This document shows, in pieces, positions 2,722-14,118 of a stretch of DNA of 14,208 nucleotides (positions within the stretch are counted from its first letter, which is position 1; the number at the start of each line of letters is the position of its first letter). Source of the stretch: a virus. Lineage: Duplodnaviria; Heunggongvirae; Uroviricota; Caudoviricetes. The notes under the pieces were generated by a model. It had not been told where the DNA came from. It searched no databases and saw only the letters and a program-made list of their open reading frames with translations. The DNA is taken from the IMG/VR virus record IMGVR_UViG_3300024270_000054. One strand, written 5' to 3'. The translations under genes were made by a program, and so were the position numbers.

Positions 2722-3045
2722 TTACTCCTTTTCGCCCATGAGGACGGCCAGCGCTTCCTTGGCGTTGTGACCTTCCTGCAGCATTTCTGTCGTAATCTCA
2801 ATATCCGCTTCAAGGGATACGCAGACGGATTCCGTGCCGTGCATAGCACCCTGCGTAAAGACGAATACGCTGTCGTCCAGCACCATGCCAACCTCGTCCA
2901 TCTCCTCGTGCACCTTGGCGCAGATACCCTCTGCCTGCTCCTGCGGGCATGCGACGTAGCAGCCGTTCTTGTGCAGTCGGATGTATCTGATCGCATCCGT
3001 GTAAAGTGTCTTGTCTTCTGTCATAATCCTGAACATGCTGATCAT
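2722..3045 (-). CDS. Phage hypothetical protein (107 aa; start may be ATG 3036)
   Basis: ATGA overlap with the upstream stop. AAAGGA RBS is better spaced for the ATG at 3036. Stop abuts the RBS of the CBM gene. Confidence 0.75.
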   Translation of the reverse strand: MISMFRIMTEDKTLYTDAIRYIRLHKNGCYVACPQEQAEGICAKVHEEMDEVGMVLDDSVFVFTQGAMHGTESVCVSLEADIEITTEMLQEGHNAKEALAVLMGEKE

Positions 3046-3455
3046 CCTTTCATAATTAGTTTTCTGATATATTCAAGATCGCTGATTTCAGCGTTGTAAA
3101 AATCGTAGTTCCAAACCCAGTCGTCTTCATGCTCCGGGCGCTTGTATTTAAGGCACGTTTCGTCCTCCCAAATCTTGCCCCATACATGAGCATACCTGCT
3201 GTCGCTGACTTTAAGCTTCCTGAGTCTTTTCAAAATGTCCTGCGTCAGTTCGCCGCGTTTAAGGCCGCTTCCGTCATCATTCTGCGCGAAGTAGTCGTAG
3301 GCATTCTGGCTCGTAACGCTGCAAATGCGTCCCTGCGGGAACAGGATGAATCCGTTTACGGCATGCACCTTTGCCCCATAGGGCAGGGCAATGTCGCCGC
3401 AGATGGCTCGTCCTTCAAATTTCTTGATGACAATATAAGTATCATATTGTTTCAT
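3042..3455 (-). CDS. Hypothetical protein (137 aa) overlapping the 3' end of the DGR RT
   Basis: AGGAG RBS 6 nt before ATG 3455, 14-nt overlap with RT. Distinctive ICSVTSQNAYDYFAQNDDGSGLKRG and KYKRPEHEDDWVWNYDFYNA segments. Confidence 0.8.
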   Translation of the reverse strand: MKQYDTYIVIKKFEGRAICGDIALPYGAKVHAVNGFILFPQGRICSVTSQNAYDYFAQNDDGSGLKRGELTQDILKRLRKLKVSDSRYAHVWGKIWEDETCLKYKRPEHEDDWVWNYDFYNAEISDLEYIRKLIMKG

Positions 3456-3461
3456 ATTGTT
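3442..3461 (-). repeat. Perfect 10-bp tandem duplication (AACAATATGA x2)
   Basis: + strand tcatattgtt at 3442-3451 and 3452-3461. One copy carries the downstream ATG, the other the RT stop. Confidence 0.9.
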
Positions 3462-4842
3462 CTCCTGTGTGATAATCTCTGCGAATTTCCCGCAGTTTGT
3501 CGTATGCTCTTGCGCGTCTGCTTCTCGGTCTGCATCCTTCTCGTTTAATCACCGGGATAAATGATGCGGTTTTCTGGCTTTGAAGCTGCCTGATCTTGTC
3601 AAGTAGATCCTGTTTGGAATCGGAATATACCCATCCGAATTCATTGTGCCATGTTCCGCGAAGCGTACACTTGAAAGCAAGTCTGTATTCTGAAAGTTCT
3701 TTAGCGAAGATAGAGCAAAACAATTGGTCTGTTGAATGAAGCGTGCGAAAGCTGTTGCATCGTCTGGCGTGGGCTCTCCATGATTGATAAGAGGCAAAGC
3801 AGTCATCTGTGTCGAATCTTCCTGCGTCCATCCATCCTCTGAAAATGTGAAGCTTTCTGCGTATAGCGCGGATGCTTTGCCTGCTCAGTTTCATCGTCAC
3901 TTTGCCGTTTTCCTCAAGCCGTATGCGCAGCTTGAGAAATCGGAAACTGTGGCTTTTCAGCGGAGTGATTTTGCACTTCTTTTCGTTCAGCTCCATGCCG
4001 ATGGACTTTGTAAATTCCGTCAGCCTACGATGAAGCTCTTTGAGCTTATCGATGGATTCGCAGATCACATATCCGTCGTCCATGTATCGCGCATAATGCT
4101 TGAACCCAAGAACGTCTTTGATAAAGTGATCGACCGGACTGGCGTAATCAAGTGCAATATTCTGCGATACCTGACTGCCAAGCCCAACGCCGCATGACTG
4201 TCCATCGATATAAATCACGTCGCTCATCTCCCTGAAATCGTCGATGAGCTGACAGCCGAGCTTTTGCAGCCGCTCGTCCCAAATGTGTTCTTTGAGTCTT
4301 TCCTTTGCATGCTCATGGGGAATAGAGCCGAAATAGTTCTTGAAGTCAAACTGATAAATGCCGCCGTTAAGTCCATGCTTGCGGTAGTGCTTTTGCAGAT
4401 GACTTTTGAGCCTGCGCAGCGTCATGTCCATACCCTTACCGGGCAGGCTTGCGCTGTTGTCGTAGATGAAGCTTCTGGAATATGCCTCCGTCATAATCTG
4501 GTCACAGAAGCATTTCTGCACCGTGCGATCCTGTATCGTCAACGCATTGATGCTTCTCAGTTTTCCGTGTTCAACGGTGTTAAAGTGCTTGAATCCTTTG
4601 AATTTGTAGGTATCATTGTGCAGCGCGTCATAAAGCTTCTGCGTCTCGCGCACAAGATGGGTTTCAAAGTGGATCGTCGATGCTTTCCATCTGACGCCCT
4701 TGCAGCATCCCCTTGCTGCGTCCAGCAGGTTTTCAAATGTGAATACTTCGTCAAATGTTTTCCCGCAGACTGTTGCTGCCTTTTTCATTCGTTTTGCTTT
4801 TCGCCGCTGATAGCGGCGCTCATGTCTCTCTTCGCTGTTCAT
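3442..4842 (-). CDS. DGR reverse transcriptase (466 aa)
   Basis: RT motifs IQDRTVQ, DNSASLPGKG, FDFKNYFGSIPH, GVGLGSQVSQ, RYMDD (YMDD at 4086-4075), GMELNEKK and FRFLK. Lies directly downstream of avd and TR. Confidence 0.95.
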   Translation of the reverse strand: MNSEERHERRYQRRKAKRMKKAATVCGKTFDEVFTFENLLDAARGCCKGVRWKASTIHFETHLVRETQKLYDALHNDTYKFKGFKHFNTVEHGKLRSINALTIQDRTVQKCFCDQIMTEAYSRSFIYDNSASLPGKGMDMTLRRLKSHLQKHYRKHGLNGGIYQFDFKNYFGSIPHEHAKERLKEHIWDERLQKLGCQLIDDFREMSDVIYIDGQSCGVGLGSQVSQNIALDYASPVDHFIKDVLGFKHYARYMDDGYVICESIDKLKELHRRLTEFTKSIGMELNEKKCKITPLKSHSFRFLKLRIRLEENGKVTMKLSRQSIRAIRRKLHIFRGWMDAGRFDTDDCFASYQSWRAHARRCNSFRTLHSTDQLFCSIFAKELSEYRLAFKCTLRGTWHNEFGWVYSDSKQDLLDKIRQLQSQKTASFIPVIKREGCRPRSRRARAYDKLREIRRDYHTGEQYETI

Positions 4843-5238
4843 ATATAAAGTAATCTTCCTGTATAGCTGTATTCTGGCTTGTAACTACGTAACTCAGCGC
4901 CCATGAAACCTAAGCCGCCAGTGGCATAAGGCCATGCAAGAAGCGTCCGGACGCTGGTATCAGAAAGCTGTTTTAGGGTTGCCTTTCGGCAAGCGCCAAG
5001 GTGTATGCCCTCCCTCTGTCAAAGGATATGGTTTTCGCTCATCGCTACTCAGTCGAATCCTCGGTCTGTATACCATAGACACAGGCCGTGCCAAGAGTCT
5101 GTCGCCACGCCATTGCAATTGTTCGCGTTGTTATTGTTCGCACTGCCGTTGGTGTTCACATTGCAGAAATTGTTCGAGTTGGTCGCATTCGTCGAACGCA
5201 GCCACCAGTTAGCGGTAACAGGGCATAACCTGAAGAAG
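4843..5238 (-). ncRNA. Putative DGR template RNA (5' leader + TR + 3' spacer)
   Basis: Non-coding avd-RT interval containing TR, a leader/spacer complementary helix (5220-5231 with 4999-5011), a TTGCC-GAAA-GGCAA hairpin (4979-4992) and a 14-bp palindrome (4942-4955). Exact ends unknown. Confidence 0.75.
5096..5216 (-). repeat. DGR template repeat (TR)
   Basis: Aligns without gaps to 5778-5898 (offset 682). In the VR frame it reads TANWWLRSTNATNSNNFCNVNTNGSANNNNANNCNGVATD, with 15 AAC/AAT codons. Confidence 0.97.
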
Positions 5239-5685
5239 TCATTTCGTGTATTGTCTGTATCTTTCGATATCGGAGGTCATGACGGCTTTGATCAAAACAG
5301 ATTCCTTGTTGAGATATTCAGCCCATGCTTCAAACACCTTCGCAGCGTCTTCCTTGCTTCCAAAGAAATTGTTTCCTTCAAGCAGGAATGTCAGCGTCAC
5401 GGTAAGCAAACTGCTCATTGAGAAAATTGCCGAACGCGCTTTGATCAGGTGTTCTCTTCGCATGTTAAATTCCATTTCGGATATGCCCTTGTGGACATAG
5501 ATGGAATTGGCACGCATAATATTGTCGTGTATTTCAATAGATAGCCGCAGGATTTCATCTGCAAAGATAAATCGCTGCGCTTTGGGGAATTTCTTGATTT
5601 GCCTTGCCGTATATACGGTTAAATCCTGTGCAACTTTCAGAAATTCCACCTTGGATTCTTTTCGTTTGGATGCATAAACCGACAT
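5239..5685 (-). CDS. avd: DGR accessory variability determinant (Avd-like four-helix-bundle protein, 148 aa)
   Basis: Position between target and TR, size, helical character and MSVYASKRKESKVEF...FPKAQRF start typical of Avd homologues. Confidence 0.85.
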   Translation of the reverse strand: MSVYASKRKESKVEFLKVAQDLTVYTARQIKKFPKAQRFIFADEILRLSIEIHDNIMRANSIYVHKGISEMEFNMRREHLIKARSAIFSMSSLLTVTLTFLLEGNNFFGSKEDAAKVFEAWAEYLNKESVLIKAVMTSDIERYRQYTK

Positions 5686-5766: not shown

Positions 5767-7203
5767 TTAGACACAGAAGGCCGGCGCCACGCCAAAGCAA
5801 CCGGTCGCGCCGGTAGCGGACGCACTGCCGGCGGTGTTCACAAGGCAGAAATAGGACGAGTAGGTCGCACGCGTCGAACGCAGCCACCACGGAGCGGTCG
5901 ATGTATTCGCGCTGTGTCGATAGAACACTCTGCTGTTACCATTTGCGTAGTACGCATATCTCTGCTGATAGTTTTGTTCTGCGCTGTTTGCATAAGTTCT
6001 AGCACCTTGTACTTCCCATTCGGAAAGCAGCCAGAGATAATCGGTCGTCGCCGTTACATAGGAAGCAGTATCCTTACCGCCGCCTGTATTGTCGGAATAC
6101 TTGGTGCATCCACGCATGACGCCACGCAGTTCTACGGGGAGTGCGGCCAGCAGGCTTCCTTCAAGCGGTTCAGATGGGAGATAATTGCTGCCCAGAAGGA
6201 CAGTGCGCATCTTACTTGCATTCCATCCGCCGCTATTGGAGTTGGTGTAGTTCATATTGAAGTAACCAGCCGTGTTGCTGACGGAAGAATTGTATTTGGA
6301 GTCGATCAGGCACAGATTCTTACCGGAAGTCTGCGCAGACTTGCCGATCTGGAAGTGAATTGTTCCCTCACCCTCATAGGTCGGATTATGATCAAAACCA
6401 AGGATGAACGCCCAGATGGACAGATTATCAAATGTCGTCAGGCCAACAGTTCCGTTGATGATAATCTCCTTCGTATCGCCGACTGCAAAATAGTTCGCAG
6501 CAAGACTGGAAGCGGACAGAACGGAAATGGTTGTCCAGTCGTTGTCGTTGAGAACGGGCTGAACCTCACCATTGAAGATTTCAATATACTTTGCTTTGTG
6601 CGTCTGAACGCCAGCATTGTACGTCCATTCCTGACCGTCAATCTCGCAGCTCACAGTCCACGTGCCGCGCTCATAAACGGTGAAATAATGTGCGCCCGTG
6701 CCTGTAGATGTGTAGGTCTTCGTGCCATTGGTACACGTAACCGTGGTGGAAACGTCGCCCATCACGTAGCAGCCAACGGTCGCTTCAAAGAAGATGAGCT
6801 TCACGTTGTCAGCGCCCTTCAGGTTGCCCGTACCCTCGTCTGCAACACGATCTCCGCTTGTACCGTTTACCGTCCAAGTGCCGTCGCTTGGCACGCTCAG
6901 GAATACTTCGCCATTTGACAGTGTACCCGTCACGGTATCCGTACCGTTCGTCGCGGTAACAGAGCCAGTCTGAAGGTTAGAGGAAACAGACAGCAGCAGG
7001 CTATCCGTGTGATGCGGCCTTGTGCCTGTTACGCCAAAAATCTGTACGCCGTCAGCGATGTTGCTTGGGATGAAGTCTTCGTCGCCAGCTTCAAGGATGG
7101 CGTTCATCTCTACCGGCGTCATTTCATCCGTTGTGCCAGTCAGCTTCCTCATGCCGTCCGCCCATGCGGTCAGGGTATCTTTCTGAATCAGATAAGCATC
7201 CAT
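5767..7203 (-). CDS. DGR target: tail-fibre/receptor-binding protein with C-terminal DUF6273 (CLec-like) domain, 478 aa
   Basis: N-terminal YLIQKDTLTAWADGMR and PSNIADGVQIFGVTGT fibre motifs. Two tandem beta-sandwich repeats (VTATNGT..GTWTV, VTCTNGT..GTWTV). Then ILGFDHN..GGWNASKMR..LWLLSEWEV..WWLRS..GVAPAFCV. VR lies at the extreme C-terminus. Confidence 0.92.
   Translation of the reverse strand: MDAYLIQKDTLTAWADGMRKLTGTTDEMTPVEMNAILEAGDEDFIPSNIADGVQIFGVTGTRPHHTDSLLLSVSSNLQTGSVTATNGTDTVTGTLSNGEVFLSVPSDGTWTVNGTSGDRVADEGTGNLKGADNVKLIFFEATVGCYVMGDVSTTVTCTNGTKTYTSTGTGAHYFTVYERGTWTVSCEIDGQEWTYNAGVQTHKAKYIEIFNGEVQPVLNDNDWTTISVLSASSLAANYFAVGDTKEIIINGTVGLTTFDNLSIWAFILGFDHNPTYEGEGTIHFQIGKSAQTSGKNLCLIDSKYNSSVSNTAGYFNMNYTNSNSGGWNASKMRTVLLGSNYLPSEPLEGSLLAALPVELRGVMRGCTKYSDNTGGGKDTASYVTATTDYLWLLSEWEVQGARTYANSAEQNYQQRYAYYANGNSRVFYRHSANTSTAPWWLRSTRATYSSYFCLVNTAGSASATGATGCFGVAPAFCV
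5778..5898 (-). repeat. DGR variable repeat (VR)
   Basis: Encodes TAPWWLRSTRATYSSYFCLVNTAGSASATGATGCFGVAPA. 28 mismatches to TR over 121 nt, 27 of them at TR adenines. Confidence 0.97.
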
Positions 7204-7781
7204 CAGAAGCTCACCTCCTCAGCATTTTCAAGCGCCTGCGCAGCCCACGCGCCGGAGCTGTTCACGCACAGGAACTTGCCTGCGTCGCTTGCGGTAACGC
7301 TTGGCAGCAGTTTTGCGCGGATGTCGCTGTGCGCACTGGTATTTGTGTTGTGCGCGGAAACAGCAGAAGATGCCGTGCCGGATGCATCAGCGCCGACTTC
7401 ACTTGCTGTATAGCTCGGCTTGCTCGCCGCTTTCGCCCAAGATGGAACGGTCGGGTCGGTTTCCGTGTGCCCCGTAATAAACCCGCTGTCGTTTGTAAGC
7501 TGGCTCGTTTTGCTTGGAATCGTCGGCAGGTTTTTAAGATCGCTGTATTCGCCGCTCAGTGCAACCTCGGCAAGAGCCGCCATTACAGCGTCATCGCAGA
7601 ACGGAAGCGCATTCACGTTCTTTGTTCCGTCGCCGATCTTCATACGCTCGTAGTCGTAATCGGCATCGATATCATAGATGATCACTTCGCCCTTGAGCGG
7701 CGTGAAGTTCGTGGCCTTTGCCCAGTTTGCAGCGGTGTCATGCTTGCAGACCAAGCGGCCATAGATTCGTTTTTCACTCAT
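7203..7781 (-). CDS. Tail-fibre protein with Mtd_N/hyaluronidase-N-like N-terminal domain (192 aa)
   Basis: RLVCKHDTAANW..PLKGEVIIY..KIGDGTKNVNALPF, then shaft motifs SGEYSDLKNLP, TSQLTNDSGFIT, ETDPTVPSWAK and AHNTNTSAHSDIR. TGATG coupling to the DGR target. Confidence 0.8.
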   Translation of the reverse strand: MSEKRIYGRLVCKHDTAANWAKATNFTPLKGEVIIYDIDADYDYERMKIGDGTKNVNALPFCDDAVMAALAEVALSGEYSDLKNLPTIPSKTSQLTNDSGFITGHTETDPTVPSWAKAASKPSYTASEVGADASGTASSAVSAHNTNTSAHSDIRAKLLPSVTASDAGKFLCVNSSGAWAAQALENAEEVSF

Positions 7782-8277: not shown

Positions 8278-11200
8278 TCAGATACAGAATCCAAAGGCGA
8301 TGCCAAGGTTCTGAGCAGACGCGCCAATGTTGCTCGGATCGCCCATAGAACCGATGTACCTATAATAGTGCATCATTTCAAGTCCCGTTGAGCGCGTCCA
8401 GTAGCTCTTCAGTCCGCCGCCTGCATTCTGCTTCTTGCGGCTTTCTGCGTTGGTGTATACTGGATACGGTTCACCCTGTCCAACCATAACGGAGTTGGCA
8501 ACTTCCGCATTCAGCTCTCGGTCGGATGGGAGCCACAGCGTATCCGTGGTTTCGTTAAGCGCCTTGTCATAGAAGCCAAGGTCGCTGACCTTGATGACGG
8601 GCTTAATCACCTGCTGCAGTTCCGCTGGCATTGCGGCAAACAGCGTCTCCTGCATCCATGTGCGAAGGTCTGCGCTTCCCCAGCCGCCGACGTTCAGCGC
8701 CTTGGAACCCGTAGCCTCAGAGACATGCTGCGTCTGGTTCATGATGCGTGCCGTGTTGCCCATGATCTTGCAGATAAACGTCAGCGCAGCGGTATCTTTG
8801 CCGCCGTTGTAGCTGTCGCTCACGGTCGCCAGCTTGTCGTGGTTGTGACCGACAATTTCCATCTCAACTTTGTTTTCAACGCCGCCCACGGTGTAAGTCA
8901 TTACCTTGCGTCCGCCAAGGCCGTATGCGCTCACATCGCCGTTTTGCGCAGCCGCCGCAATGGTCGCCCAATCATCGTTAATGTAGCCGTCAAAGGCAAA
9001 CTGCGCATAGTAATACGTAATGCCCGTGATCGGCACGTCGGGGGATGGAGACCAGCCGGAGAATTCATGATACGGAGAAGCGGTTTCACCGATCATCTTG
9101 TAAATCTGCGTCGTGTCGCCTACAAACACCGGGCATTCTCCGTAGAATGTCATGCACTCCTGCTCAAGCTTGTTATCGTTGTAGAAATAGCACTTGTAGC
9201 TGCGCAGAATCTCTTCAAATACCGGCTTGAGGACAAGCGGGGTAGTGACAACGCTGAAATCGCGATCCCACTTGGTATACTCGTAGGTATATTGAGCAGT
9301 CTCCTTCTTCGTCGGCTTTGCCATCGTTCCAGCAAGAATCGGGTCGGTAGCCGCATTTCCTTCGACAATCCATTGAGACTCAGCAATCTCGCCGTCATTG
9401 TCACAGAAATCAACGCGATATGTACCGGTGTACTTGGCGACAATGTGATACGGCTTGGTGACACTTGACGGCATCTCAGACCAACCGGCATACACATACG
9501 TTGCCGTCTCCGTATCCGGACGAACAGGCTGCGTAATGTGACCAGCGGTAATCGGGTTAATCGCCGCATCGCCCTCATTACAGATGTAGCGATACAGAAG
9601 CTTGTTGTCGTAGTTCACATAGCGAACAAAGAACTTCGCTGTGCCTCCGGCAACGACAACCAAAGCGGGGAATACGTCGTTGATCTCTTCAAGCAGCGCA
9701 TCGGAAATGCTGTCCACATATACACGTCCTTCGACCACGGCGAGATCCGTGTTGTTGCCGATAGCGTCCATACCGATGCATTCCTTGAGCTTTTCATACG
9801 TTGTGCGCAGTGTTTCTTCGCTTGTCGCGTTCCATTCAACGCCGGACAGACGTACGCGGTCGAGGAGAGGTGCGTTGCATACAATGCTCTCAATGTCAAT
9901 TCCCGGCGTATTCTCAATGCGAAGCGTCGTCAGGTTATCGACACCTTCAAGCACGACGGTTTCAAGATTCTTCTGGTTCTGGATCGTCAGGTTCGCCAGC
10001 GTCGCCGGAAGCTCGATGCGCTTGAGGTGTCCGCCGTTTGGCAGGCTGATGCCCGTCAGCTTCGTTCCTTTTGCCAGAATGGTTTCAAGGCCGTGGCATC
10101 CAGAGGCGTCGATTGTCGTCAGCTTTTCGCTTGTACAGTTCTGGATGTTGATCAGCGTCAGCAGTTCGTTGTTGCCGACATCAAGGGAATAGAGGTTCGG
10201 ATTTTCATATCCTTCTGCATCGGAGCCAAGAATGATTTCCTGAAGCTTTGTTGCAGAGGAGAAGACGGCGAGACCTACCATGAGATGAGAAAGGTCGCCA
10301 ACGGAAGCGATGCGGTCTGCGGAATAGATGTAGACTTCAGTATCGTTCATCTGATCCAGCGGACATTCCATCGTGTAGGTTTCGTTGCGGTATCCTCTGT
10401 TGGTTACGGTCGCGCTGCCGAACTTGATGCGCGGCCAGATGTGGCTGTATGGGGTAACATCGATATTGCCCGTATCATAGCAGCGCAGGGTGATGTAGTT
10501 GGTATTTGCTTCACCCGCCTGATGTTTGCTATCGCGGAACTTAAAGCCATTGAAGAGCCAGAAATCACGCTGCGCATCCTTGTCGCCCTGAAGCATTTCG
10601 AGGTAGTTTTCGCCTTTGACAAGGAACGGCTCAAGCCACTTCTTGTAGGCATCCTCGTTCCAGATTGCCTGCGGCCAAGTCTGCTGATGGTTGCGCATCT
10701 TGTCGCGGATCGTTTCATAACTCAGCGTTCCGGCATTACGAAGGGTCTGATACATTTCGGTGATTTCGTTCTTAAACGCATCGCGCACGTTGCACCAAAG
10801 AGCGCTGTGCTGTCCGTTGAAGACGTCTTCACCATTCACGGTATCTGTGTCTTCGAGGTTGTAGTCAAAGACAAGCTGTCCTTCGTTGTTGATACCAATT
10901 GCGGTATCCCAGTCGTAGGGGATAGGGAACCAGTGCTGACCGTCGAATGTGGTCAGGAACATGTTCTTCGCGCGGTTGTCAACCATCAGGAAGATTTCTG
11001 TGAAAAGGTAGTAGAACACGCAGGCGTCCTTGATCAGATACTGATCGAATTCATCCTTGAACTTCGCAAGACGCGCGGCCTTTTCTTCTTCGCTGTCCAC
11101 CAGCTCGCGGTTGCATTCAACCAGCCAATCGGTCAGGCGCTTAAACTGCGCGTAATCGCGGTACGGGTCGTCGAGGTCGGGGAAGCGTGCTTCAAAGTCG

Positions 11201-14118
11201 TCCGTCCAAGCCGGATATTCTTCACCCTTTTCGTCAATCGCCATCTGCTCGAATTCAGATTCCTTGAAGATCACGCGGTTGCTCGTATTGTTGCAGAATT
11301 CCCAGCATTCGCAGTTTGGATATACGTCGCGGTCAAAGCCGAATACGTTTTCGTTGCTCTTGTCGTCATTGAAATTGTACTTGGCGATGAACGTCACTTC
11401 GCCAGTGTTCGTATTCTGCCAGAATACGCAGCACGGGAAACCACGAACACCCTGACGCACACGATCATCAAGCTCCTGCGGCGGCGTCTTGTATGGGCAG
11501 TTCTGCTCGTAGTAGTCAACCAGCATAACGTTGTTCGCGCTCTCGCTGGAAGCGAAGTCTGCCTTCAGACAGATCGTCTCTCCCGGAAGACCGCCCTCAA
11601 AAATCGGGAACCCGTCTGTACTTTCTCCGGAGTTGGTATAAATCAGTCCGCTCTTGAGCGATACCTTATAGTTCTTCACCGGATACCCAGCAGAAGACGT
11701 GCCCTGAACGTCAAGCTGAACGCCGCTCGCAGTAAAGCTTCTTTCTGGATTCATCTGATCCACGAACGTCACAGATTTATTCTTTTTCTTGTCACCCTTA
11801 AACTGCGGAAGCTCCTCACACTCGATAATCATATAGGGGATGTTCATCGGAAGAGCACCAACCGTCACGTTCTTGTTTTCATCAAGGACGTCGTTGCGCT
11901 CATGCAGCGCCTTGCGCTCCGCCAGCGTAGAACGGTCGCAGATATAGTTATTGAGCTGTTCGTGACGGGTCAGACCCTTGTTGTAAATGCGCAGCACATA
12001 CAGGTCAAGACCGCAGCTCTCCGCACCAATAGTGATACCGACCGGGTTGCTCTGTGCAAAGTTGTCCGTGTCGGTGTACTGCGTCACGCCGCACATCACG
12101 CCGTTGATGTACACATACACAAAGCGGGAAAGGCTCTTCTGCTCAACGACAAACGTAATGCGTACCTTACTGTCTTCCTTAAACTGAACGGATACGCTGG
12201 ACTGCTCGGAGGAGAGCATCGCCTGTTGGCTCTTGATCATAAAGCCACGTCCACCGTTATAGGAAGTTGCCACGATAGAATCGTAGTCGCGCACGTTATG
12301 CGTCGCAAATTCTGCTTCAATGGTGTAACCGCTGGTGCGGAAGTCCTTTTCAAACGGCTTGTACGGAATAGTCATGAAGTCGTCTGGCAGGAAACGAAGC
12401 ACGGTATGTCCGTCCTTGTCTTCTACCCATCCGTCAGCGCCAGCCCAGCCAAATCCGCTGAATTCCGCTTCAATGTCGCCCTGAACCCAGCTATCCGGAT
12501 TGGCTTCGGAATTGCTGCGCCCAGCAGCAGTGAATTCAAGTGTCATGCTGTCCGTCAGAATCGTGCGGTCAAAGCTTGATTCGGACACCTGAACAACGAT
12601 GCTTTCCTTGGCATTGCCGCAGGAAATCTCAAATGTCGTTGCGCCGACAGGATAATCCTGTGTCACCCAAGTCTTTGGCGTTTGATCAATTTGAATTGTC
12701 TTTTCGCTGTATACAATACTGCCCTCGCGCAGAATCTTGAGCGTTACGTCCATGTTCTGTGAGAACGGATCATAGCACATGTAAGGGATAGTCAGCGTTT
12801 CTCCCTGTTGGATGCTTCCGCCGTCATGGTTAATCAGAACGGCCTGATCTGTCATCGTAGAAGAGTAGTACATCATGCCAATTCTCAAACGATTGGATTG
12901 AATGGTCAGCCCATCCGTCGTTACCTCAGCGTACATTTCAAAGATGTGTCCGCCGTCATATTGTGCGGGAATCGTATATGTACGACTTGAGTCAACAGCA
13001 GAAACGCTTTCTGTGCCAAGCTCATAACCGTCCATAATAAAATGAACTGTCTTCACACCTTGACCAGTCAGAACATAGGGGAGATAGACCGTTCCGGTAT
13101 ACAGATCCATATCGGCAGCGGTCGTGGTGATCGCCAGCGCAATAACGGTAACTTCGTATACCAGCGTCTTGCTCGTTCCCTCAGAGTTTTCAACGGTCAG
13201 CCTTACGTTATTAAGGCCATTGGAAAGATGGTTGGTGATGTCAATGGAGCTGCGTCCCTGTGCCACAGAAATAGATGCTTTCTTGACAGAGTTGACGGTA
13301 ATCGTACCAATACCGGCTCCATCGTCGATACCTTCGCTGTCGGTAGAAATATACTGAACATCCAGCACAACGTTTTCACCTTGAGCAACGGAAATGATAC
13401 GACTGTCCAGCATGTTTGTCAGCGTAACTGCATACATGCCGTCAGATCCCGTTCCGCCACCGCCGCCAGTGATCGTCACCGGATCGCCAACAGTCTCGCC
13501 TCCGCTTGTCAGCCATAGCTGGCTGTTTTCATATTTAAGACCGTCAACCATCTCGCCGACAAGGAAATCGCCAAGATTGTCTTTCAGGTCTGAAACTTCT
13601 TCGCCGATTGCGCGTACAGCGTCACCGGCAGTTGGATATGTCGTCCCGTCATGACCTGTGCGGATGTCAATCAGCTCAACATTGTCAGCAGGCGTACTTC
13701 CTTCAATCAGGGACTGTAAACGAGCTTCAAGCAGCGCAATATCGTCTTCAAGCTCAATTGTTTTCGTGTCAATCAGGTCTGCATTGGCGTTCAGGATTGC
13801 AACGTCAATCACGTCAGTATAGGCGGGCTTGGTCAGCATAAGCCTTTCCGTCGTTCCTGCGGCATCTCCCTCAGTCTTTCCGGAAATCCCGCCCCAAGTC
13901 TGAGCGGCGCTTTGTGCAGCGCTTCCGGCAGTCACATAAGCAAGGTCTTTCCAAGGAGTTTCGCCGTCGCCCACCTTTACTTTGGTCATATCAGAAGCAA
14001 ACTCAACGCCAATTTCGCCCCTCATCAGAACGACGGTTTCTTCAACCGCAGCCCAGTTCGCACTCGTGTCATTTCGCACAATAATGCGAGTGGCTAATTC
14101 ATTGATATTCATCGGCAT
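8278..14118 (-). CDS. Giant multidomain virion/adhesin protein (1946 aa): Mtd_N-like, Ig-like stalk, LamG-like, CotH-kinase-like, LRR, 3x InlB-B-like repeats, C-terminal DUF6273/CLec-like
   Basis: AAGGAG RBS. RNDTSANW..GEIGVE..KVGDGETPWKDLAY (about 14090-13932). LamG-like VYVYING..ITIG..LRIYNKGLT (about 12535-11970). LKADF..E, VDNRAKN and IPYDWDT (about 11800-10800). LRR-like run (about 10310-9820). Three repeats (9633-8998). IVGHNHD..GGWGSADLR..LWLPSDREL..YWTRS..GIAFGFCI (8986-8281). Confidence 0.9.
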   Translation of the reverse strand: MPMNINELATRIIVRNDTSANWAAVEETVVLMRGEIGVEFASDMTKVKVGDGETPWKDLAYVTAGSAAQSAAQTWGGISGKTEGDAAGTTERLMLTKPAYTDVIDVAILNANADLIDTKTIELEDDIALLEARLQSLIEGSTPADNVELIDIRTGHDGTTYPTAGDAVRAIGEEVSDLKDNLGDFLVGEMVDGLKYENSQLWLTSGGETVGDPVTITGGGGGTGSDGMYAVTLTNMLDSRIISVAQGENVVLDVQYISTDSEGIDDGAGIGTITVNSVKKASISVAQGRSSIDITNHLSNGLNNVRLTVENSEGTSKTLVYEVTVIALAITTTAADMDLYTGTVYLPYVLTGQGVKTVHFIMDGYELGTESVSAVDSSRTYTIPAQYDGGHIFEMYAEVTTDGLTIQSNRLRIGMMYYSSTMTDQAVLINHDGGSIQQGETLTIPYMCYDPFSQNMDVTLKILREGSIVYSEKTIQIDQTPKTWVTQDYPVGATTFEISCGNAKESIVVQVSESSFDRTILTDSMTLEFTAAGRSNSEANPDSWVQGDIEAEFSGFGWAGADGWVEDKDGHTVLRFLPDDFMTIPYKPFEKDFRTSGYTIEAEFATHNVRDYDSIVATSYNGGRGFMIKSQQAMLSSEQSSVSVQFKEDSKVRITFVVEQKSLSRFVYVYINGVMCGVTQYTDTDNFAQSNPVGITIGAESCGLDLYVLRIYNKGLTRHEQLNNYICDRSTLAERKALHERNDVLDENKNVTVGALPMNIPYMIIECEELPQFKGDKKKNKSVTFVDQMNPERSFTASGVQLDVQGTSSAGYPVKNYKVSLKSGLIYTNSGESTDGFPIFEGGLPGETICLKADFASSESANNVMLVDYYEQNCPYKTPPQELDDRVRQGVRGFPCCVFWQNTNTGEVTFIAKYNFNDDKSNENVFGFDRDVYPNCECWEFCNNTSNRVIFKESEFEQMAIDEKGEEYPAWTDDFEARFPDLDDPYRDYAQFKRLTDWLVECNRELVDSEEEKAARLAKFKDEFDQYLIKDACVFYYLFTEIFLMVDNRAKNMFLTTFDGQHWFPIPYDWDTAIGINNEGQLVFDYNLEDTDTVNGEDVFNGQHSALWCNVRDAFKNEITEMYQTLRNAGTLSYETIRDKMRNHQQTWPQAIWNEDAYKKWLEPFLVKGENYLEMLQGDKDAQRDFWLFNGFKFRDSKHQAGEANTNYITLRCYDTGNIDVTPYSHIWPRIKFGSATVTNRGYRNETYTMECPLDQMNDTEVYIYSADRIASVGDLSHLMVGLAVFSSATKLQEIILGSDAEGYENPNLYSLDVGNNELLTLINIQNCTSEKLTTIDASGCHGLETILAKGTKLTGISLPNGGHLKRIELPATLANLTIQNQKNLETVVLEGVDNLTTLRIENTPGIDIESIVCNAPLLDRVRLSGVEWNATSEETLRTTYEKLKECIGMDAIGNNTDLAVVEGRVYVDSISDALLEEINDVFPALVVVAGGTAKFFVRYVNYDNKLLYRYICNEGDAAINPITAGHITQPVRPDTETATYVYAGWSEMPSSVTKPYHIVAKYTGTYRVDFCDNDGEIAESQWIVEGNAATDPILAGTMAKPTKKETAQYTYEYTKWDRDFSVVTTPLVLKPVFEEILRSYKCYFYNDNKLEQECMTFYGECPVFVGDTTQIYKMIGETASPYHEFSGWSPSPDVPITGITYYYAQFAFDGYINDDWATIAAAAQNGDVSAYGLGGRKVMTYTVGGVENKVEMEIVGHNHDKLATVSDSYNGGKDTAALTFICKIMGNTARIMNQTQHVSEATGSKALNVGGWGSADLRTWMQETLFAAMPAELQQVIKPVIKVSDLGFYDKALNETTDTLWLPSDRELNAEVANSVMVGQGEPYPVYTNAESRKKQNAGGGLKSYWTRSTGLEMMHYYRYIGSMGDPSNIGASAQNLGIAFGFCI

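Follow-up and report, generated by a model that had tools for sequence, protein, structure and literature searches.

A divergent CotH-family kinase-fold domain, most likely catalytic, in a giant tail-fibre-type phage protein

Analysis of a 14,208-nucleotide stretch of Caudoviricetes DNA (IMG/VR virus record IMGVR_UViG_3300024270_000054, the whole of which is referred to here as the window) identified a giant tail-fibre-type protein, P0001, whose residues ~759-1200 make up a CotH-family kinase-fold domain that is divergent yet complete. From a structural model of this domain and the conservation of its residues among homologues, we consider it most likely, at a probability of roughly 0.6, that the domain is a working nucleotide-dependent phosphotransferase. 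The initial annotation of the window had proposed a CotH-like kinase domain in a giant virion-type protein and had placed it at 10800-11800; its motifs do lie inside this range, but the full domain is wider, as given in the second line below.

8278-14118, minus strand: P0001, a giant tail-fibre-type gene and the largest open reading frame (ORF) of the window, encoding 1,946 aa
10519-11844, minus strand: CotH-family kinase-fold domain of P0001, residues ~759-1200, assigned from fold and homologues

Fold and family of the CotH domain

The fold was assessed with an AlphaFold (AF2) model of residues 740-1200, built on an alignment (A1) of 64 domain segments that are 40-62% identical to the query and have a mean column identity of 45%. 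The model reached a predicted local distance difference test score (pLDDT) of 94.6 and a predicted template modelling score (pTM) of 0.93. A Foldseek search of the Protein Data Bank (PDB) placed the Bacillus cereus CotH structures 5JDA and 5JD9 at the top (E 1e-11, template modelling score 0.70), with PI3-kinases next at E>4e-3. Similarly, VIA-align superimposed the model on 5JD9 over 336 of 358 residues (Z 30.6, root-mean-square deviation 3.4), the runners-up being the kinase CtkA (Z 11.1) and HipA, PI4K and Fam20C (Z 7-10). The best matches among the AlphaFold models of Swiss-Prot were Bacillus subtilis CotH (E 3e-11), four Rhizopus CotH proteins and the B. subtilis CotH-like protein O06723. 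Thus the claim of a CotH/kinase fold was borne out, with the model matching B. cereus CotH far above other folds, and the CotH-fold assignment of residues ~759-1200 is secure over both lobes.

Sequence comparison gave a more indirect picture. Residues 740-1200 were used as the query of an exhaustive HMMER search. At E<=1e-3 it recovered 2,838 cluster representatives, and among the matches listed, most were proteins of ~2,000 residues. When the 64 homologues of A1 were scanned singly, 47 matched Pfam CotH (PF08757) at E<=1, the best with an E value of 8.3e-13, and 30 of 48 longer homologue segments did so at E<=0.01. Searches of PDB sequences with phmmer and with the family profile returned no match to the P0001 domain, and an hmmsearch of the A1 profile against canonical clostridial CotH proteins was not significant. 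Because P0001 itself misses both Pfam CotH and the PDB sequences, its membership of the CotH family at the sequence level is transitive, through its homologues. Comparison with PF08757 by hidden Markov model (HMM) and by Foldseek, the check named in the initial annotation, therefore had a divided outcome: the structural match stands at E 1e-11, but the HMM match belongs to the homologues and not to P0001.

The P0001 domain has the same fold as Bacillus CotH (5JD9/5JDA; Q45535; PF08757) over the whole 358-residue enzyme, and the catalytic Asp, the Asn, the metal-binding Asp and the adjacent aromatic residue have equivalents in P0001. The two differ in that identity is just ~11-12% with no direct HMM match, ~100 residues of P0001 lie in insertions, and the P0001 catalytic loop adds the invariant residues R1049 and K1051. 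Moreover, Bacillus CotH is a free 42-kDa coat protein, whereas the P0001 domain is embedded in a 1,946-aa phage protein.

Conservation of the catalytic residues

The candidate catalytic residues map as follows.

11563-11565, minus strand: K852 in LKADF, invariant, at the end of a beta strand before the N-lobe helix
11542-11544, minus strand: E859, the candidate ion-pair partner of the initial annotation
10963-10980, minus strand: catalytic loop D1047-N-R1049-A-K1051-N1052, assigned by motif alignment to 5jd9 and by conservation
10906-10917, minus strand: Y1068-D1069-W-D1071, aligned to the P-W-D-Y-D segment of 5jd9

All of these motifs, as first quoted from the sequence, occur in one reading frame at exactly the positions originally reported, within ORF 8278-14118. 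In B. subtilis, CotH is inactivated by the substitutions D228Q and D251A (PMC7821199). CotH retains equivalents of PKA D166, N171 and D184, and its residues Tyr142 and Trp245 stack on either side of the adenine (PMC12189002). The C-lobe sequence of 5jd9, which we obtained from HMMER output with a canonical clostridial CotH profile and then aligned by motif, reads Q-N-F-D-G-F-V-H-N...I-P-W-D-Y-D-A-T-W-G and aligns with M-V-D-N-R-A-K-N...I-P-Y-D-W-D-T-A-I-G of P0001 with one single-residue gap. Both 5jd9 and P0001 1043-1075 fit the pattern D-x4-N-x16/17-P-[WY]-D-x-D-x3-G. By this motif alignment, D1047 corresponds to the catalytic Asp, N1052 to the Asn and D1069 to the metal-binding Asp (B. subtilis D251), while Y1068 aligns with the adenine-stacking Trp of P-W-D and D1071 is a second invariant Asp. 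The two essential Asp residues are 23 residues apart in Bacillus CotH and 22 in P0001.

Conservation was counted in 151 representatives, 41-62% identical to the P0001 domain and aligned to the family HMM. K1051, N1052, Y1068, D1069, D1071 and K852 were found in all 151, D1047 in 150 and R1049 in 148, and four residues of a Q-G-T-S-S loop (Q805, G806, T807 and S809) were likewise kept in every representative. Further invariant residues, R888, K920, W939-E940 and N915/N917, lie outside the canonical kinase motifs. The catalytic motifs also persist in the far more distant protein of Hankyphage, at 30% identity. Because the catalytic residues are near-invariant against a mean column identity of 45%, the pattern points to selection on catalysis, as judged from these alignments. 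The D-x4-N catalytic loop and the metal-binding Asp had thus been rightly identified in the initial annotation, with 150-151 of the 151 representatives keeping them.

The proposed K852-E859 ion pair, by comparison, was not established. Although K852 is present in 151 of 151 representatives, E859 is replaced by Ser or Thr in 24 of them, and the alignments conflict. In the secondary structure of the model, K852 sits where the beta3 Lys of protein kinases lies topologically. Relative to canonical CotH, hhalign placed K852 in the helix region, alignment of the motifs by eye placed it opposite an Asn, and an hhalign comparison limited to the N-lobe (E 7e-4) again positioned it differently from the motif alignment.

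The same conservation bears on the possibility that the domain is a pseudo-enzyme, a non-catalytic structural or binding module of a fibre shaft or adhesin for which the Mucorales CotH invasins would be the model. Several of the strongest fold matches of P0001 are Rhizopus CotH invasins (CotH2, CotH3 and CotH7, E 1e-9 to 3e-8), which are surface-exposed proteins acting in host recognition; the rest of P0001 is made of binding modules (see below), and an extracellular location speaks against the use of ATP. However, the Rhizopus proteins are eukaryotic cell-wall proteins that bind a host receptor, with neither a phage or fibre context nor the flanking domains found in P0001. In addition, retention of the catalytic Asp, Asn and Asp and the stacking aromatic residue in 150-151 of 151 representatives, in a domain that otherwise averages 45% identity, is expected for catalysis rather than for a scaffold. 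We therefore consider a purely non-catalytic module unlikely.

Fibre architecture and possible activity

The remaining recognizable parts of P0001 are listed from the N-terminus to the C-terminus; LRR denotes leucine-rich repeat and CLec denotes C-type-lectin-like.

13957-14085, minus strand: Mtd_N-like N-terminal tail-fibre anchor, residues 12-54 (Pfam Mtd_N, E 1.5e-5)
11974-12471, minus strand: ConA-like/LamG-like jelly-roll domain, residues ~550-715 (Laminin_G_3, model and Foldseek)
9913-10272, minus strand: LRR-like repeat block, residues ~1283-1402 (weak Pfam LRR, model and repeats)
8332-8721, minus strand: C-terminal DUF6273/CLec tip, residues 1800-1929 (Pfam DUF6273, E 9e-9)

The gene has a terminator-like hairpin and a ribosome-binding site upstream. 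A Pfam scan of the whole protein returned just Mtd_N (12-54), a sub-threshold Laminin_G_3 match (591-717) and DUF6273 (1800-1929), the Mtd_N score of 25.3 bits being slightly below the 26.3 cut-off. Residues 8-71 matched tail fibre and tail assembly families of PHROG, and phrog_14959 (E 3e-151) and phrog_24896 (E 8e-77), two families of giant phage proteins, were matched as well; a megablast comparison of the P0001 gene with the phage collection gave no match. No signal peptide was found in the protein. The Mtd_N and PHROG tail matches agree with the earlier description of a giant virion-type protein, here one of tail-fibre type.

The location of the kinase domain between lectin-like and LRR domains was also upheld, with a ConA-like jelly roll on one side and an LRR-like block on the other. 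The Laminin_G_3 match is below the Pfam cut-off (E 2-3e-4), and the region is an all-beta sandwich in a model of residues 550-1520. Foldseek matched this jelly roll at E~1e-10 to chains with lectin-like jelly-roll subdomains, a likeness at the level of fold only. Structurally it came closest to the jelly-roll subdomains of NTNH proteins and of the binding domains of clostridial neurotoxins. For the LRR-like block, the support consists of weak Pfam LRR matches in P0001, LRR_4 matches in 5 of 48 homologues (best E 7e-5), regular short strands in the model and ~22-residue L-x-x-L repeats in the sequence. The 971-residue model, which covers the jelly roll, the CotH domain and the short-strand block, had a pLDDT of 92.7 and a pTM of 0.88, and because it is confident as a whole, it suggests that these three parts are held together as a single rigid unit in the middle of the shaft.

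We propose that P0001 is a virion fibre in which the Mtd_N-type N-terminus would anchor the protein to the tail and the C-type-lectin-like tip would bind a ligand. Besides this N-terminus, indirect pointers to a place on the virion are the tail-module position of the Hankyphage homologue and the tail proteins detected in Hankyphage particles, both described below. With no signal peptide on the protein and little ATP to be had outside cells, the enzyme would most probably act in the cytoplasm of the infected cell, the one compartment where ATP is plentiful, late in infection; its targets there could be the fibre itself, other virion proteins or a host protein; it would then be carried on the particle.

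Several points weigh against a working phosphotransferase of this kind. P0001 did not match Pfam CotH even at E<=10, whether the whole protein or residues 740-1200 were searched, and the profile-profile comparison by hhalign of A1 with canonical clostridial CotH (A2) was weak (E 0.0047, probability 7.5%). Alignments of the N-lobe Lys and Glu conflict, as described above. The virion location of P0001 is itself a prediction, and a kinase borne on a virion would have no obvious source of ATP outside the cell. Finally, kinase folds with conserved catalytic residues can serve other chemistry, such as AMPylation by SelO, and can use non-protein substrates, as do the glycan kinases Fam20B and POMK.

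This last consideration leads to a reading in which the domain is an active kinase-fold enzyme but its substrate is not a protein, being instead an envelope glycan, teichoic acid, a lipid or a small molecule, or in which it carries out another nucleotide-dependent transfer. Such an activity would be in line with the enzymes usual on phage fibres, and in the model the CotH domain sits in a rigid arrangement, with a carbohydrate-type, ConA-like module on one side and the LRR-like block on the other. The extra invariant residues outside the canonical kinase motifs could also be read in this way, as could the weak fold matches to Fam20C structures (Z 7-9); some Fam20 relatives of CotH are glycan kinases. 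Against it, the CotH enzymes characterised so far all phosphorylate proteins, on Ser (PMC7821199), and no supply of ATP is known at the cell surface. We regard a non-protein substrate as fairly unlikely.

Returning to the working phosphotransferase, a more specific form of it has the fibre bringing an active kinase to the host, there to modify a component of the cell surface or envelope, or the phage's own receptor-binding apparatus, in the control of adsorption or tropism. We consider this form decidedly improbable. If a kinase did act at host contact, it would represent an unrecognised step in phage-host recognition in thousands of gut phage lineages, including Hankyphage.

A class of giant fibres and the neighbouring DGR

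P0001 belongs to a known and widespread class of giant gut-phage fibres that includes the variable protein of Hankyphage. Relatives were found in assemblies, mostly metagenome-assembled genomes from gut and rumen, labelled as Clostridia, Bacteroidales, Coriobacteriia and others, as well as in IMG/VR contigs; many metagenomic members are 40-74% identical to P0001, and isolates carrying relatives include Segatella copri, Parabacteroides hominis and Zongyangia hominis. A tblastn search found matches in 22 Bacteroides phage records, of which the best-known carrier is Hankyphage p00. There the gene is the target of a diversity-generating retroelement (DGR) and encodes 2,245 aa (BK010646.1 31489-38226), following genes for the baseplate hub and a minor tail protein. 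BLASTP aligned the P0001 CotH domain with this protein at E 2e-43, with 30% identity over 428 residues. P0001 and the Hankyphage-type class share the size of ~2,000 aa and the same order of modules, namely carbohydrate-binding or ConA-like, CotH, LRR and C-terminal CLec-type tip. They differ in that the giant gene of the Hankyphage type itself holds the DGR variable repeat (VR), whereas the local DGR has no VR in the P0001 tip.

The closest viral relative, with 74% identity in the CotH domain, is encoded on a 174-kb contig (L088, IMGVR_UViG_3300029305_005108; locus 16644-19561). A gene for a NinI-like Ser/Thr phosphatase lies a few kb downstream in that contig, as does a PurZ-like one (phrog_1211, E 2e-33), and this relative may come from a large phage with 2-aminoadenine DNA. 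Across the family loci (L001-L094), the C-terminal modules differ, with DUF6273 in some and a BspA-type LRR_5 in P0017, which gives the appearance of a conserved core fitted with exchangeable tips.

This distribution bears on the earlier suggestion of spore-coat proteins as targets of the kinase, or of an action on hosts that sporulate. In its favour, the CotH of Bacillus is a kinase of the spore coat (PMC7821199) and many of the carriers are Clostridia; however, close homologues with the same motifs belong to phages and prophages whose hosts do not sporulate, namely Bacteroides, Segatella, Parabacteroides and Coriobacteriia. Because Bacteroides phages carry the same domain, we consider a spore-specific role very unlikely.

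The class has been noted repeatedly, first by Ye 2014 (PMC4159848) among the reports considered here, then as 'category f1' by Wu 2018 (PMC5758913) and as PC_00012 by Roux et al. (10.1101/2020.04.01.020958), who also suggested an interaction between the kinase and the CLec tip. It was called 'currently unstudied' by Benler 2021 (PMC8008677), and Macadangdang 2024 (10.1101/2024.11.15.621889) described it as 'domain group 3', in which CotH (5JDA) occurs together with LRRs and carbohydrate-binding motifs. Studies of Hankyphage have called the protein a putative tail fibre and have not addressed the kinase. The initial annotation had ranked this protein as the best candidate in the window for an undescribed system; at least five papers had already reported the architecture, but it is correct that no function has been characterised.

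Tail proteins were detected by mass spectrometry in preparations of Hankyphage particles (PMC12135933, S6 Table), and from gene order and size, one entry of the >250 kDa fraction is probably the giant protein. Induction and manipulation of Hankyphage are now feasible in Bacteroides thetaiotaomicron (PMC12135933), so that what a kinase would do on a tail fibre is open to experiment in that system. The CotH domain is among the most conserved parts of a protein found in very many gut and rumen phages, Hankyphage, which is common worldwide, being one of them. To this class the window adds one more member and an example of a giant fibre uncoupled from a DGR.

The initial annotation had also remarked on a DGR beside the giant protein. 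A complete DGR does adjoin P0001, but it acts on a gene for a 478-aa protein and not on P0001. Its parts, including the reverse transcriptase (RT), the template repeat (TR) and the accessory gene Avd, are as follows.

3442-4842, minus strand: RT, DGR core
5096-5216, minus strand: TR, DGR core
5239-5685, minus strand: Avd, DGR core
5767-7203, minus strand: 478-aa DGR target gene, holding the VR at 5778-5898

Of 28 mismatches between TR and VR, 27 fall at TR adenines. Comparison of the TR with the 3' end of the giant gene by a local aligner gave background only, with a score of 29.5 compared with 145-213 in relatives. Thus, the local DGR diversifies a separate, smaller fibre gene of 478 aa, and P0001's own tip is fixed. 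The CLec tip of P0001 is paralogous to the C-terminal tip of the 478-aa target (31% identity, E 3e-14) and could be a fixed or former DGR target. Of 70 complete related loci, about 20 carry an RT no more than a few kb downstream. Seventeen relatives of this kind were tested, and in 14 of them the giant gene ends in a VR of ~130 nt whose mismatches are biased towards adenines.

The tail-fibre tip of Bordetella phage BPP-1, Mtd, is the paradigm of a DGR-diversified tip. P0001 resembles it in having an Mtd_N-type N-terminus, a CLec-fold tip and a location next to a DGR; it differs in that Mtd is small, lacks an enzyme domain and has a diversified tip, unlike that of P0001.

Several smaller ORFs surround the DGR, all on the minus strand. 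A 192-aa ORF (7203-7781) has an Mtd_N-type N-terminus like that of P0001, and its stop overlaps the start of the 478-aa target at 7203; together the two look like a two-gene fibre consisting of an anchor and a diversified tip. A 137-aa ORF (3042-3455) overlaps the RT stop and belongs to a conserved phage family (phrog_29409, E 2e-42). The 135-aa protein encoded at 2311-2718 contains two CBM_5_12 modules (E 8e-22), and its PHROG matches include tail-fibre families. Lastly, a 143-aa ORF among the late genes (1510-1941) shows weak matches to retropepsin-type aspartyl proteases (gag-asp_proteas, E 1.4e-5).

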